Positions 5,793-14,693 are shown, numbered from the stretch's first letter. The stretch: DNA of 56,764 bases from Candidatus Tantalella remota (GCA_030765685.1 JAVCCB010000082.1:1-56764); one strand, 5' to 3'. Numbers and translations: made by a program. Notes: a model not told the origin generated them from the sequence alone.

Positions 5793-7715
5793 CTATGTCT
5801 TTATCGCCATTACCGTGATATCGTCATGCTGCTTGGCTTTGCCGGCAAAAGCGGTTACTTCCATATGTATGGCATCCACAACCTCTTCGGCGGAACAACC
5901 TGCCAGTGTAGTCCCCAACGCCGAAAGGCGTTCCTCTTCGAACATCTCTCCCCTGGTATTCATGGCCTCGGTCACACCGTCCGAATAAAGGACAAAGATG
6001 CTTCCCTTCTGGTATTCGTGCTCGCCCGGGGCGAAATCGCACTCTATCATCCCCAGCGGCATACCTTCGGTAACGTCCAGAAACTGGACGGTACCGTCCG
6101 GCGCTATCACCATAGTAGGCATATGCCCGCCTATGGCCTGTTTGATCTTGTTGATGCCTGGTTCTATATCCATAAACGTCAGCGTGACAAAAAGACCGCT
6201 GCTGCTATCGGCGCACAGGCGATCATTTACCATTTTTAAGACTTCCGTCGGTGAGCCTTCCTTGACGAACGTCTTGAACACACTAACGACCTTTGCCATG
6301 TAAAGCGCTGCCGGCACGCCTTTACCTGAAACGTCACCAAGCATCACACCCAACCTGTTATCATCAAGCTTTACTATATCGTAAAGGTCTCCGCCGACAT
6401 GAAGCGCTGTAACCATCTTCACGCTTACCTCGAGCCCGCCCACATCAGGTATTTCCGTGGGAAGAAAACTCTGCTGTATATCCTTAGCGATATAAAGTTC
6501 TTTCTCTATTACTTCTCTTTTCCTGAGTTCGGTCACGTATTTTTTAAAAGTAAATATGGCATAGATTATGCCGATAGATAAAAGAGGATAGAAAACGTCC
6601 ACCCATATCCCTAAGTTCCAGAAAAAAGATATAGCCAAGATCACGTAGAACAGCATCACCGTCACTATCGAGAGAAACGCGAAACGTTTACGGCTGTGGA
6701 CCGTGGAATACGCCGTGATGAACCATACCACTATTATCAGGAGAAGGTTCCACCATTTGTTCAGCCTGAATATGAATTCATTCTCGAGGATACTGTTATA
6801 TACGCTTGTATGCACGCCTATACCGGGATATAACGGCTCCATCGGCGAAGGATGAGCGTCGGGTGATGCCGTTGCCGTCAATCCTATGAAACACACAGTC
6901 CCTTTAAGGTTCTTTAAGTTGATCACCGGTTTTTGTCCGGTAACATCCGCCAGATATGATTGAAGCACATCGACATAAGAATAATGCTTAAACGCGCTGC
7001 CCCACACATCGGGATAATCTACGAGCATAGATGATTCGTACCCTAACGGTATTACAAGATCGTCATCCACTATCATTTTTTTACCGGGAATTATTTTTAC
7101 GTTATCGAATGAATAGTCGAGGTTGTTCAGCGCTATAAGGACCGTCAAATTCGGATAGTATTTCCCTTCATATTCGATGAAGGGCGGTATCCTCCGGACT
7201 TTGCCGTCCTGGTCCGGCTTTACGTTAACGAACCCCGTGCCGAGCGCGGCATCCGCAAGCGGCTTGATAAGCGGCGCCGCGTAACCTGTAGCGTATAGCT
7301 TGGACTTGTCCGGGTTATCCCTATCGAGCTCAAATACATACGGAATGTATACGTTACCCGCTTCCTTGACCGCGTCAGCGAAAGCTTCGTCGCCCTCATT
7401 GGTCTCGCTGAAAAAAATATCGAATACTATAGTCTCTACGCCCGCTGACTTGAGCGCTTTTGTAAGAAGCGCGTGATAATTCCTCGGGAACGGCCATTTA
7501 CCTATTTTATCTATAGAATCATCGCCGACTTCGATGATGACGATCTTCTCATCTACAGGCTGTGCGGGACGTATCTTATACCTGAAATCCAGCGTACTGT
7601 ACTCAAATTCATCGAAGACTCTCGAAAAGGAAAGAAACAGCATCACCAGTGACACCAGCACCGCCAGGATATAAAACAGGATCTTCTCTTTATCTATGGA
7701 TTTGATCATATGCAA
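5793..7715 (-). CDS. CHASE2-domain sensor fused to SpoIIE/RsbU-type PP2C phosphatase
   Basis: N-terminal TM; GKWPFPR, FDIFF, DQDGKVRR, PGIGVH (CHASE2); 3 TMs; VGGDLYD, GDVSGKG, YSDGVTEA, DDIT; start may be 7709. Confidence 0.93.
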   Translation of the reverse strand: MHMIKSIDKEKILFYILAVLVSLVMLFLSFSRVFDEFEYSTLDFRYKIRPAQPVDEKIVIIEVGDDSIDKIGKWPFPRNYHALLTKALKSAGVETIVFDIFFSETNEGDEAFADAVKEAGNVYIPYVFELDRDNPDKSKLYATGYAAPLIKPLADAALGTGFVNVKPDQDGKVRRIPPFIEYEGKYYPNLTVLIALNNLDYSFDNVKIIPGKKMIVDDDLVIPLGYESSMLVDYPDVWGSAFKHYSYVDVLQSYLADVTGQKPVINLKNLKGTVCFIGLTATASPDAHPSPMEPLYPGIGVHTSVYNSILENEFIFRLNKWWNLLLIIVVWFITAYSTVHSRKRFAFLSIVTVMLFYVILAISFFWNLGIWVDVFYPLLSIGIIYAIFTFKKYVTELRKREVIEKELYIAKDIQQSFLPTEIPDVGGLEVSVKMVTALHVGGDLYDIVKLDDNRLGVMLGDVSGKGVPAALYMAKVVSVFKTFVKEGSPTEVLKMVNDRLCADSSSGLFVTLTFMDIEPGINKIKQAIGGHMPTMVIAPDGTVQFLDVTEGMPLGMIECDFAPGEHEYQKGSIFVLYSDGVTEAMNTRGEMFEEERLSALGTTLAGCSAEEVVDAIHMEVTAFAGKAKQHDDITVMAIKT

Positions 7716-7747
7716 CTCTCGTCTTTATAAAATCTAATATTTGTAAT

Positions 7748-7776
7748 ATTATAACCGTTAGTAGCTTATTTGGGAA
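7748..7776 (-). promoter_or_regulatory. Putative promoter of CHASE2-PP2C gene
   Basis: TTCCCA-17 nt-TATAAT. Confidence 0.5.
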
Positions 7777-7787
7777 TAGTTAATCTG

Positions 7788-8481
7788 AGTACCGGGTATC
7801 GGGTACCGGGTATCGGGCAAACCGGAGCTGGTTTAGGGGTTTAGTTTTGGAAACTGGAAACAGATCCAGGATATCAGGGAATCAGGGGTATTGGGGACAA
7901 ATATCAGGAACAGTGAACAACATATCTAAGTACCGGGTATCGGGTACCGAGTATCGGGCAAGCAAAAGCTAAACCTAGATCCCTTGGTTCGGCCTTACGG
8001 CCTTCGCTCCCGCCTTCCTCCTTCGCCAACCTATTTAGATTTTATCTGGCTACGGCGGACTTCGTCGCTGAAGCTTCCACCTTCGCCAAGGCTACGGCGG
8101 ACGAGTCGGCGGACAGGCGGGATGACAGTGAGGGACTCAACCAAAACCCCGTAACCCGAGACAGGGGATCAGGGAATCAGGCGATTGGGGACTAGGAAAT
8201 CAGGGAATCAGGGAATTGGGGACAAATATCAGGAACAGTGAACAACATATCTAAGTACCGGGTATCGGGTACCGAGTATCGGGCAAGCAAAAGCTAAACC
8301 TAGATCCCTCGGTTCGGCCTTAAGGCCTTCGCTCCCGCCTTCCTCCTTCGCCAATCTATTTAGATTTTATCTGGCTACGGCGGACGAGTCGGCGGACAGG
8401 CGGGATGACAGTGAGGGGCTCTATTGGACACGCAGTCGAGAAATCTGGTACTAAATACTGCATACTGAATACTAAATACTG
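7788..8481 (+). repeat. Mosaic repeat block with two related ~220-270-bp direct copies; nested elements at 8009-8117 and 8334-8400
   Basis: ttggggacaaatatcaggaacagtgaacaacatatctaagtaccgg...cgggatgacagtgaggg occurs twice; the second copy lacks 42 nt between repeated ggctacggcggac. Confidence 0.88.
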
Positions 8482-8505
8482 GATTTTGATAGTGTGCTTA
8501 AACTT

Positions 8506-13085: not shown

Positions 13086-13106
13086 ACCTTGTTCTTCACT
13101 CTCGGT

Positions 13107-13904
13107 TTAGACGTTTGAAAAGAAAAATATACCCGTTATTATACAGTCAAACAACACTATCAGAATAAAACTTATAACAACGCTAAGCGTGGTAGATTTA
13201 CCGACACCCTCGGCGCCGCCTCTTGTACCAAGACCCACATAGCAGGCTACCATCGCTATTGACGCACCAAAAACAACACTCTTTATAAGACCCGTCCATA
13301 TATCTTTGAACGTCATCATATCGAAAGAAAAAGATGTGTACCTGTAGATATTGATATCCAGCTGCGTGACCCCTACGATCATCCCGCCAAGGACACCCAC
13401 GATATCGGCCATTATAGTAAGACAGGGAAGCATTATGATAAGAGCGAGGAACCTCGGCACGACAAGAAACCTGACAGGATCAAGGGCCAGGGTCTCCAGA
13501 GCCTCTATCTGTTCTGAGACTTTCATCGTTCCCAGCTCGGCGGCTATGGCGGAGCCTACCCTTCCCGCGACAACAAGGGCGGCAAAAACGGGACCCAGCT
13601 CCCTGGCCATGCTGATACTGACCATGGGGGCTACGAAGATGACGGCGCCCAGCTGGTTCAGCTGATACGCGCTCTGCATAGCTATGACTATACCCGTAAA
13701 AAGTGATATGAAAAATACTATGACCAGCGACTGGACGCCAACGAATACCATCTGTTCAAAAATGCTTTGACGGCTGCTCGCCTTGCCTTTGATGGGGCCT
13801 ATTATCACCCAGTACAAAGTATTATAAAAAAGCGAAAGTACACCGGAGATGTGACCTCCAAGCGTCAGGATCGTCTTGCCTATGCTACTTATTGGATTAT
13901 TCAT
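13107..13904 (-). CDS. mlaE: MlaE ABC permease
   Basis: RELGPV, AGRVGSAIAAELGTMKVSEQIEAL, FLVVPR, GAEGVG. Confidence 0.95.
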   Translation of the reverse strand: MNNPISSIGKTILTLGGHISGVLSLFYNTLYWVIIGPIKGKASSRQSIFEQMVFVGVQSLVIVFFISLFTGIVIAMQSAYQLNQLGAVIFVAPMVSISMARELGPVFAALVVAGRVGSAIAAELGTMKVSEQIEALETLALDPVRFLVVPRFLALIIMLPCLTIMADIVGVLGGMIVGVTQLDINIYRYTSFSFDMMTFKDIWTGLIKSVVFGASIAMVACYVGLGTRGGAEGVGKSTTLSVVISFILIVLFDCIITGIFFFSNV

Positions 13905-13941
13905 GCTTGTCAGGTCTCTTTCGTTAAGATGTGACGTTTAC

Positions 13942-14274
13942 CTAGAACGTTCCTACGGCGTCTTCTTCTTCGGGCACGATATCGAACAGTTTATCCAGTT
14001 TCGTTATCTCGAAAAGACCCTTTACCTTAGCTGACAAATTAGTGAGTTTCAGCTTGCCACCATAAGACCTGAGATTCTTCAGGATCTCGACAAGCGTCGC
14101 CAGACCGGAACTGTCAACATAGCCTACCTCTTTAAGATTTATCACGACCTTGTCTTTTTTCTCACTGACCGTCGTGTCAAAAGACTTCTTCACATCCGGC
14201 GCACTGTTTATATCTATGTCACCATTCATCCTTACGATCGTCACGCCGTTCATGTCTTCCATATTGATCTGCAT
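13942..14274 (-). CDS. STAS-domain anti-sigma-factor antagonist (RsbV/SpoIIAA-like)
   Basis: GDID, YVDSSGLATLV phosphoacceptor motif, LFEITKLD. Confidence 0.92.
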   Translation of the reverse strand: MQINMEDMNGVTIVRMNGDIDINSAPDVKKSFDTTVSEKKDKVVINLKEVGYVDSSGLATLVEILKNLRSYGGKLKLTNLSAKVKGLFEITKLDKLFDIVPEEEDAVGTF

Positions 14275-14285
14275 ACGTTCCTCCG

Positions 14286-14693
14286 TTATATGTGTTGCCT
14301 GTCCAGATATTTTATCATAATTAGTCTTCTTCCGCCATTCTCATATCGTACTTCGTCCATAAGATGCTTTATCAGATACACTCCCCTCCCGCCTTCAAGA
14401 AGTAGATTGTCATCATGCGTAGGGTCCGGAAGAGATTCCGGGACGAAGCCGTCTCCTTCGTCCTCTACCATTATCGTCACCGAATTATCTTCTATTTTGG
14501 TCTCCACGGCGACCTTCTTGTGCTCTGATCCCTTATTGCCATGCACCATGGCGTTTCTCAAAGCCTCTTCGAAGCCTACGTGCACATCGAAGATTATCTC
14601 CTCGTTTACCCCTATCTCACGCAACTCCTCAATAAGCTCGTTGCTGACTTCTTTCAAAAGATGACTGTCGTTCTCTATAGAAGTCCGTTTCAT
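14286..14693 (-). CDS. RsbW/SpoIIAB-like anti-sigma Ser kinase (HATPase)
   Basis: EEALRNAMVHGN, DEGDGF, EGGRGVYLIKHLMDEV. Confidence 0.92.
   Translation of the reverse strand: MKRTSIENDSHLLKEVSNELIEELREIGVNEEIIFDVHVGFEEALRNAMVHGNKGSEHKKVAVETKIEDNSVTIMVEDEGDGFVPESLPDPTHDDNLLLEGGRGVYLIKHLMDEVRYENGGRRLIMIKYLDRQHI

Follow-up and report, generated by a model that had tools for sequence, protein, structure and literature searches.

A partner-switching kinase, STAS protein and CHASE2-PP2C phosphatase encoded with an Mla-type lipid transporter in Candidatus Tantalella remota and other Omnitrophota: conserved linkage and a predicted STAS contact on the transporter ATPase

Analysis of a contig of Candidatus Tantalella remota (GCA_030765685.1 JAVCCB010000082.1:1-56764; its whole length of 56,764 nucleotides is called the window here) identified a cluster of nine co-oriented genes on the minus strand at positions 5793-14693, 3' of accA, which is best explained as encoding a lipid ABC transporter of the Mla type with a phosphorylatable STAS protein as its fourth subunit, together with a kinase and an envelope-sensing phosphatase dedicated to that subunit. 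The gene order after accA was found to be kinase, STAS, MlaE, MlaF, MlaD, FecR1, FecR2, beta-barrel and CHASE2-PP2C phosphatase, and Pfam families were assigned for eight of the nine genes, the exception being the barrel. An earlier reading of the same DNA (the original prediction) had placed these nine co-oriented genes directly after accA, and every item was confirmed by gene calls, Pfam searches and a structural model of the barrel.

The linkage of the Mla genes to the switch genes is beyond chance, as judged from two samples of Omnitrophota genomes. For the first, selected from the phosphatase side, a CHASE2-PP2C match at E<=1e-20 was obtained in 178 of 301 genomes, and the 80 best full-length matches, with up to 20 kb around each, were taken as loci (five partial matches were passed over). 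Genes for the kinase, STAS, MlaE, MlaF and MlaD were found in this order upstream of the phosphatase gene, and co-oriented with it, at 59 of the 80 loci; these full clusters come from 22 families, two of which (f48 and f53) lie outside the class to which Tantalella belongs. At 13 loci none of those genes was upstream of the phosphatase, at 5 the kinase and/or STAS gene stood there alone, and the last 3 were classed as other (one cut contig with MlaD-FecR-barrel-PP2C and two loci with unrelated ABC ATPases).

The second sample was selected from the transporter side and is thereby not biased towards the phosphatase. The second MlaE of Tantalella was used as query against 81 genomes of the class, giving 110 matches of at least 250 bits, a count that leaves out 14 weaker matches to a third MlaE type (36-42% identity). 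Thirty-four of the 110 were type-1 MlaE, the type closer to the window copy, and kinase and STAS genes were located directly upstream in 34/34. The other 76 were of the second type, which was matched in 80 of the 81 genomes, and no STAS gene was detected within 1.5-1.8 kb of any of these 76 in a profile search that recovered 10 of 10 positive controls. With both samples combined, the kinase-STAS-Mla core was present in 28 families. The phosphatase gene adjoined the core in 26 of the 34 type-1 loci, while the contig ended first in 3. A scan of genome contigs with the STAS alignment gave at least 573 relatives, the best 80 of which were all from Omnitrophota metagenome-assembled genomes. The original prediction had made its case depend on whether the mla and signalling genes are unlinked in related genomes; they were found linked in 59/80 and 34/34 loci.

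All three components of a partner switch were recognised in the cluster. The first gene (14286-14693) encodes an RsbW/SpoIIAB-type serine kinase of 135 amino acids (Pfam HATPase_c_2, E 1.6e-27) which aligns to Bacillus subtilis RsbW (6m36); on the NCBIfam RsbW models it scored 52-59 bits, under their cut-offs, so that the RsbW and SpoIIAB equivalog cut-offs were not reached. Its N-box residues E43 and N47, the G1 motif D78xG80xG82 and the G2 motif G102xG104 were kept among 60 orthologues. The last gene (5793-7715) encodes a membrane phosphatase of 640 amino acids with a CHASE2 domain (E 1.6e-50, residues 23-335) and a SpoIIE domain (E 2.9e-47, residues 451-639), the layout being that of a predicted periplasmic CHASE2 sensor followed by membrane helices and a cytoplasmic PP2C domain of the SpoIIE/RsbU type; hydrophobic stretches that flank the CHASE2 domain were visible by eye in the translation. 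The GGD, DVSGKG, SDG and DD motifs of the phosphatase were kept in 59 sequences, and it is the sole CHASE2 protein of the Tantalella genome.

The STAS gene (13942-14274) encodes a switch protein of 110 amino acids (Pfam STAS, E 7e-24) which is proposed to be an MlaB-like partner of MlaF. Residues Y52, D54, S55, S56, G57, A59 and T60, forming the motif Y-x-D-S-S-G-x-A-T, were invariant in 60 sequences over 22 families. A profile of the STAS family matched TM1442, SpoIIAA and RsbV at E values of about 4e-24 to 1e-19, and MlaB chains at 4.5e-4 only. D54-S55 aligned with the MDS of SpoIIAA (MDSSGLG) and TM1442 (MDSAGLG), and because TM1442 has the first serine only, S55 is probably the phospho-acceptor; the acceptor is Ser58 in SpoIIAA and Ser56 in RsbV. 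The catalytic and phospho-acceptor motifs of the kinase, the STAS protein and the phosphatase are all intact.

The transporter itself is represented by three genes. MlaE (13107-13904) is a permease of 265 amino acids and type 1 (Pfam MlaE, E 4e-78), one of two MlaE genes in the Tantalella genome. MlaF (12285-13085) is an ABC ATPase of 266 amino acids with a C-terminal extension (ABC_tran, E 4e-35), whose closest solved relatives were the MlaF chains of 7d06, 7ch8 and 6xbd over the full length (residues 6-264). MlaD (11597-12190; 197 amino acids; Pfam MlaD, E 9e-16) has a single MCE domain and an N-terminal membrane helix, and scored 78 bits on the NCBIfam model OM_asym_MlaD, the cut-off of 135 not being reached. 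The assembly (2.03 Mb, 96 contigs, 93.96% complete) gave zero matches to MlaC (PF05494), MlaA (PF04333) or PqiC/ABC_trans_aux. The statement in the original prediction that mlaA, mlaC, pqiC and a sigma factor are lacking from the window agreed with this result, as the window held no such match and the first three were absent from the whole assembly too. The second Mla ATPase gene of the genome (contig C33, L003:7225-8077, minus strand) was found in two frames which switch within the Walker A motif, through a genuine frameshift or through a mistake in the assembly; if the frameshift is real, the switch-linked Mla system would be the sole intact one in the Tantalella genome.

A complex of MlaF and STAS was modelled in three runs with both partners supplied as alignments. 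The complex score was 0.74 compared to 0.01 for the best control; that mark was attained by 116 of 157 solved complexes and by 2 of 215 mismatched pairs. The runs shared at least 97% of contacts, and the partner had a predicted local distance difference test score (pLDDT) of at least 90. The modelled interface comprised STAS residues 22, 25-26, 29, 54-56, 58-60, 62-63 and 90-92 and MlaF residues 113-130, 159-161 and 192-193, with the DSSG phospho-site of STAS central in the contact and set against the MlaF helical subdomain. In the model, then, STAS would contact MlaF through its phospho-site. According to the consulted part of a report on the Escherichia coli complex (PMC7367683), the STAS protein MlaB sits on the MlaF helical subdomain with Thr52 in the middle of the interface; T52E weakens binding and T52A is non-functional too. 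Tyr261, Leu265 and Leu266 of E. coli MlaF are described there as part of a short C-terminal helix, of which Tyr261 and Leu265 dock in the MlaF-MlaB groove.

A comparison that is independent of the model was made between 69 STAS-linked MlaF sequences and 70 STAS-less MlaF sequences of the second Mla system. Position 122 was I in 66/69 of the STAS-linked set and K, E, R or Q in the STAS-less set; position 123 was M, I or V in 69/69 and R or K in 69/70; position 126 was M, I, V or L in 69/69 and E or D in 58/70; position 127 was K in 69/69 and C, S or A in 69/70; and position 161 was D in 69/69 compared to 6/70. A C-terminal tail of at least 14 residues after the GP motif was present in 67/69 STAS-linked and 9/70 STAS-less sequences. 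The patch of the window MlaF consists of I122, M123, M126, K127 and D161, and its tail carries Y260, L261 and L264, which were retained in 61/69, 62/69 and 65/69 STAS-linked sequences, respectively, and were mostly absent from the 70 others; in alignment (query 7-264 with chain residues 8-265) the three tail residues fall at E. coli Tyr261 and Leu265. The two MlaF types were split with a branch support of 100 in a quick tree. By this comparison, therefore, a hydrophobic surface of the size of a STAS protein and a putative docking tail occur only where a STAS gene is present, and the surface appears specific to the STAS-linked paralogue.

On this evidence we consider it fairly probable that the STAS protein acts like MlaB and that phosphorylation governs its binding to MlaF. 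Unphosphorylated STAS would sit on the helical subdomain of MlaF, like E. coli MlaB, and would, together with the C-terminal tail of MlaF, keep the ATPase assembled and active on MlaE. The RsbW-like kinase would phosphorylate S55 of the DSSG site in the middle of the contact, upon which STAS would leave MlaF and transport would stop. The CHASE2 domain of the phosphatase would read a periplasmic or outer-membrane cue, possibly aided in about half of the clusters by a secreted FecR protein and a 14-stranded barrel, and the PP2C domain would strip the phosphate and so turn transport on again. Of this scheme, the gene content, the conserved linkage, the intact motifs and the paralogue-specific MlaF surface are observations and the contact between STAS and MlaF is a model, while phosphorylation, the direction in which it acts, the cue and the transported lipid are inferred. 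The original prediction had proposed that a PP2C/STAS/RsbW switch is tied to Mla transport in place of a sigma output, with a surface signal passing from barrel to FecR to CHASE2. The first part is supported by the linkage in both samples, the modelled contact between the STAS phospho-site and MlaF and the paralogue-specific patch; the relay as stated is not supported, for reasons given with the FecR and barrel genes below.

Several observations weigh against this reading. MlaF-MlaB complexes have already been solved and the high complex score may mirror likeness to them; the pass is therefore to be taken as likeness and not as proof that this pair binds. By sequence the STAS protein is an anti-sigma antagonist of the SpoIIAA/RsbV type, scoring 88.6 bits on ant_ant_sig (cut-off 53) and only 31 bits on mlaB_1 (cut-off 90). 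At 8 of the 80 phosphatase-side loci CHASE2-PP2C was accompanied by a kinase and/or STAS gene while Mla genes were lacking there, so that the switch is a module which can also be put to other uses. The phosphatase was encoded elsewhere in 4 of the 30 type-1 loci that could be judged (G027, G029, G099 and G262), although in G262 the unlinked CHASE2-PP2C was the only SpoIIE-family gene detected in the genome. In G079 (L247; 98% complete), where the fetched stretch (C42:1-4271) is too short to show what follows MlaD, the kinase-STAS-MlaE-MlaF-MlaD genes were present and zero SpoIIE-family/PP2C matches were obtained in the assembly. The first sample was picked by the phosphatase, relatives are non-independent observations and the survey was made within the Omnitrophota. 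Finally, the direction of the effect is borrowed from E. coli MlaB mutants and could differ here.

One alternative is a classical switch, in which the RsbW-like protein would hold a transcription factor encoded elsewhere, dephosphorylated STAS would free it, and the mla genes would be merely operon companions or members of the regulon. The closeness of the STAS protein and kinase to SpoIIAA/RsbV and RsbW is what would be expected of such a switch, as are the CHASE2-PP2C triads at the 8 loci that lack Mla genes, and a second factor of the sigma-70 type is indeed encoded in the genome. Three Sigma70_r2 matches were obtained in the assembly (proteins of 592 amino acids, the size of RpoD, of 190 amino acids, the size of an extracytoplasmic function (ECF) factor, and of 294 amino acids), all on contigs other than that of the window, on which there was no match. 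The 294-amino-acid factor (contig C36), one possible candidate, matched best on RpoD/RpoS models and scored 120 bits on SigB/F/G, far under the cut-off of 234, which none of the three reached. No sigma gene was present within the cluster of the window or next to it, and none was noticed in the examined loci, other kinds of target not having been searched for. A classical switch would also leave unexplained the STAS-sized patch and Tyr/Leu tail of STAS-linked MlaF, and the presence of kinase and STAS genes at 34/34 type-1 compared to 0/76 second-type MlaE genes, and it is considered distinctly unlikely.

Very unlikely, in our estimation, is that STAS is a permanent, structural MlaB-like subunit while the kinase and phosphatase act mainly elsewhere or the switch is vestigial. 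E. coli MlaB does function without a known kinase, according to the sections of PMC7367683 that were consulted, G079 retains the cluster with no PP2C found in its assembly, and the phosphatase is unlinked in the four genomes named above. The kinase gene was nevertheless adjacent in 34/34 loci with its ATP-binding motifs conserved, the DSSG site was invariant over the 60 sequences and 22 families, and the catalytic motifs of the phosphatase were conserved; a vestigial switch is therefore disfavoured, since decay of these motifs would be expected. It is also unlikely that the sign is reversed or that partners compete, such that MlaF-bound STAS inhibits, or the kinase sequesters unphosphorylated STAS, and the phosphatase lowers transport. 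In classical switches unphosphorylated STAS binds the kinase by the same face (SpoIIAA-SpoIIAB), and this kinase-binding face is the one modelled on MlaF; moreover, the sequences themselves are compatible with either sign of the switch. Assembly is favoured over inhibition by the conserved MlaF tail, which in E. coli docks at the groove between MlaF and the STAS protein, and by the requirement for E. coli MlaB both to hold MlaF on the complex and for function (PMC7367683, in the part consulted).

Between MlaD and the phosphatase, the window carries a cassette of two FecR genes and a barrel gene. FecR1 (10656-11570, likely start ATG 11510; Pfam FecR, E 1.8e-8) and FecR2 (9558-10436, likely start ATG 10385; Pfam FecR, E 2e-11) are periplasmic FecR-domain proteins and paralogues with 37% identity. 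The AlphaFold2 model of FecR1 (pLDDT 87.9) showed a signal peptide, a beta-rich domain at residues 28-191 (pLDDT >90) and a single 45-residue helix at 220-264 that lies in a strongly charged tail; the last 70 residues of cluster FecR proteins were a median of 40% charged (35 proteins). The barrel gene (8506-9561) encodes an outer-membrane beta-barrel protein of 351 amino acids, BBP2_2/Slam-like, with a signal peptide, a C-terminus ending in YYTF and 14 strands in its AlphaFold2 model (pLDDT 86.6). The window copy had zero Pfam or NCBIfam matches, while 24 of 27 barrel orthologues touched PF10082 (BBP2_2) at E<=1 (best E 1.2e-8), and its atlas neighbours were BBP2_2/SlipAM clusters. Foldseek gave only general likeness to CymA, OmpG, FadL and porins (template modelling (TM) score 0.45-0.55; FadL <0.5), and a FadL-like or Slam-like function is not claimed for the barrel on likeness of this general kind.

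In 30 of the 59 full clusters MlaD was followed by the phosphatase gene within 250 bases, with no cassette; the other 29 carried FecR+barrel (22), FecR+FecR+barrel as in the window (4) or FecR alone (3). The FecR and barrel genes are therefore accessory, and the core is kinase-STAS-MlaE-MlaF-MlaD, usually closed by CHASE2-PP2C. At two loci from two genomes (L197 and L198) the cassette remains with MlaD although the gene for the CHASE2 phosphatase lies at another place in the genome, and FecR genes were found just upstream of CHASE2-PP2C at five Mla-less loci (L062, L070, L074, L082 and L080). Since the cassette is optional and stays with MlaD at L197 and L198, its products could belong either to the sensor or to an outer arm of the transporter, and the barrel to FecR to CHASE2 relay of the original prediction is left unproven. 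The precedent which it had cited, that CHASE2 sensors work with FecR-domain or barrel partners, does hold: in the consulted parts of the sources, Sinorhizobium meliloti NsrA is an outer-membrane receptor required for signalling via the CHASE2 cyclases CyaK and CyaD1/D2 (PMC7529298), and in Burkholderia a LysM-FecR-domain protein is encoded beside a CHASE2 histidine kinase (PMC5192318).

It is possible, if on balance doubtful, that the FecR and barrel proteins form a periplasmic and outer-membrane arm of the transporter which replaces MlaC and MlaA and are not an input to CHASE2. MlaC, MlaA and PqiC were not found in the genome, the cassette directly follows MlaD and stays there in L197 and L198 without the phosphatase, the 45-residue helix modelled for FecR1 could be a spacer, and the lipid channel FadL and Slam-type translocators are among the known barrels with 14 strands. 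Set against this are the 30 full clusters that lack the cassette and the three more that have FecR alone, the second Mla system, which is also without a cassette, and the FecR genes upstream of CHASE2-PP2C at the five Mla-less loci. In addition, the fold likeness of the barrel to FadL is general (TM <0.5), and pairings of FecR with a CHASE2 kinase and of an outer-membrane receptor with CHASE2 cyclases have been published (PMC5192318, PMC7529298; both consulted in part).

Some of the loci without Mla genes are informative about the contexts in which the switch is found. In L063 (G215) the order was DUF212, L,D-transpeptidase, AccA, STAS, kinase, CHASE2-PP2C and a GAF-HD protein; the upstream context matches that of the window, the Mla genes are absent and the order of STAS and kinase is swapped. 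In L026 (G241), L039 (G219) and L027 (G292), from three other Omnitrophota families, CHASE2-PP2C was followed by kinase and STAS genes (fused in L027) and by a gene for an Ion_trans_2 (potassium-channel-like) protein of 251-256 amino acids; here, too, a STAS switch may be associated with a protein of membrane transport. Further switch genes were also observed in the Tantalella genome. Contig C69 (L195:1823-6066) holds a second switch-like module, in which a protein of 789 amino acids joins a SpoIIE phosphatase to a sensor region and to a kinase domain like that of RsbW, with a gene for a 102-amino-acid STAS protein about 1.5 kb away on the opposite strand. A third STAS gene, on contig C29 (L196:2515-3199), overlaps a gene whose product of 115 amino acids is weakly like sigma-70/ECF factors in their region 4 (27 bits, under the cut-off).

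The cluster is compactly arranged. The accA gene (14701-15657, minus strand; Pfam ACCA, E 4.5e-148), a conserved upstream neighbour, is separated from the kinase gene by 7 bases and is probably in one transcription unit with the cluster. Within the cluster genes overlap or are separated by at most 37 bases, with three exceptions: 94 bases between MlaF and MlaD, 219 bases between FecR1 and FecR2, containing a dispersed repeat (10465-10618), and 790 bases between the barrel and the phosphatase. This last spacer (7716-8505) is packed with repeats, including 175-nucleotide direct repeats of 98% identity. Both of the longer spacers hold copies of one dispersed family of short repeats, for which blastn gave 182 matches spread over 37 of the assembly's 96 contigs. 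The repeat spacer was absent at the matching place in relatives, and in L004 the barrel and phosphatase genes lie directly side by side; the repeats may have split the operon in the Tantalella genome. A hairpin with a T-run (11542-11572, minus strand; 14-pair stem with 7 G-C pairs) was found by pattern scan between the MlaD stop and the likely FecR1 start and could, as a terminator-like pattern match only, be an attenuator of transcription between the core and accessory genes; the promoter and terminator scans, which report patterns only, returned numbers of sites near shuffled expectation (27 compared to 21.5 and 18 compared to 14.1).

Upstream of AccA (15683-17847) the window encodes an L,D-transpeptidase with LysM and TPR, a DUF212/PAP2-like membrane protein and a GTP cyclohydrolase I. 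The order FolE, DUF212, L,D-transpeptidase, AccA and kinase was repeated in many loci of the class; that so many of its families keep these genes in front of the cluster points to a longer string of genes related to the envelope. Elsewhere in the window a second PP2C protein of 470 amino acids (38314-39726; a SpoIIE match and weak NCBIfam matches) and an open frame of 2388 amino acids (43781-50947) were observed.

Every protein family in the cluster is known; what is new is the fixed combination and the wiring that it implies, with an ABC ATPase as switch partner and CHASE2 as input. The system resembles MlaFEDB of E. coli, Acinetobacter baumannii and Pseudomonas aeruginosa in that MlaE, MlaF and MlaD are encoded together, in the full-length alignment of MlaF, including its C-terminal extension, and, by the complex model, in the seating of STAS on the helical subdomain of MlaF around a central Ser/Thr site, as is described for Thr52 of MlaB in the consulted part of the E. 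coli report. It differs in that the STAS protein of the cluster belongs to the SpoIIAA/RsbV type and scores under the mlaB_1 cut-off, in that its gene lies upstream of mlaE beside a kinase gene while a sensor phosphatase ends the cluster, and in that MlaC and MlaA were not found in the Tantalella genome. With the Bacillus switches RsbU/RsbV/RsbW and SpoIIE/SpoIIAA/SpoIIAB it shares the same three families with conserved catalytic and acceptor motifs; unlike them, it has no linked sigma factor and no SigB/F/G type was detected in the genome, while the proposed STAS target is an ABC-transporter ATPase and the input to the phosphatase is a periplasmic CHASE2 domain.

Non-transcriptional outputs to the envelope that depend on STAS phosphorylation have been described for Vibrio fischeri SypE/SypA (PMC10120452) and Anabaena HenR/All4160 (10.64898/2026.04.08.717354). 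As those sources state in the parts consulted, the output there is polysaccharide synthesis, whereas here the proposed output is the ATPase of an ABC transporter, on which a contact surface is predicted, and both the input domain and the gene order differ. A CHASE2 receptor near a barrel or FecR protein is common to the present cluster, NsrA-CyaK/CyaD1/D2 and the Burkholderia LysM-FecR/CHASE2 kinase pair (PMC7529298, PMC5192318, in the consulted parts); unlike in those systems, the output domain is PP2C and not a cyclase or histidine kinase, and the FecR and barrel proteins are optional and are candidate partners by gene neighbourhood. A literature search, mostly at the level of titles and the beginnings of abstracts, returned no publication linking mla genes with a kinase or PP2C phosphatase; a preprint on hopanoid transport in which Omnitrophota and Mla both appear is unrelated to this locus.

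A wider reading is put forward tentatively, its parts taken jointly being a good deal less secure than the mechanism proposed above. The CHASE2 phosphatase might read the lipid state of the outer membrane or periplasm and set the occupancy of MlaFED by STAS in seconds with no transcription, so that the homeostasis of envelope lipids would run in a closed loop; MlaB of Proteobacteria, which lacks a kinase and has a conserved and unexplained Thr52, might be a decayed remnant of such a switch; and the triads beside potassium-channel-like proteins in three other families would hint that STAS switches which directly gate membrane transport proteins form a broader class.

Post-translational control of Mla/MCE lipid transporters is an open question. 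Phospho-regulation of MlaB at Thr52 was suggested by the authors of the E. coli study, who had neither a kinase nor a phosphatase for it, evidence being absent by their own statement in the part of the report consulted (PMC7367683). The cluster described here is a natural system that brings together the genes for the transporter, its proposed STAS subunit, a kinase dedicated to the latter and a sensor phosphatase, in at least 28 families of one phylum, and because all components are encoded together the hypothesis of MlaB phospho-regulation is testable with four or five recombinant proteins. If the proposed mechanism is true, an ABC-transporter ATPase would join the short list of partner-switch outputs other than sigma factors, the poorly understood CHASE2 domain would gain a defined physiological read-out, and regulated lipid trafficking would be a conserved trait of the Omnitrophota, a phylum known almost only from metagenomes.

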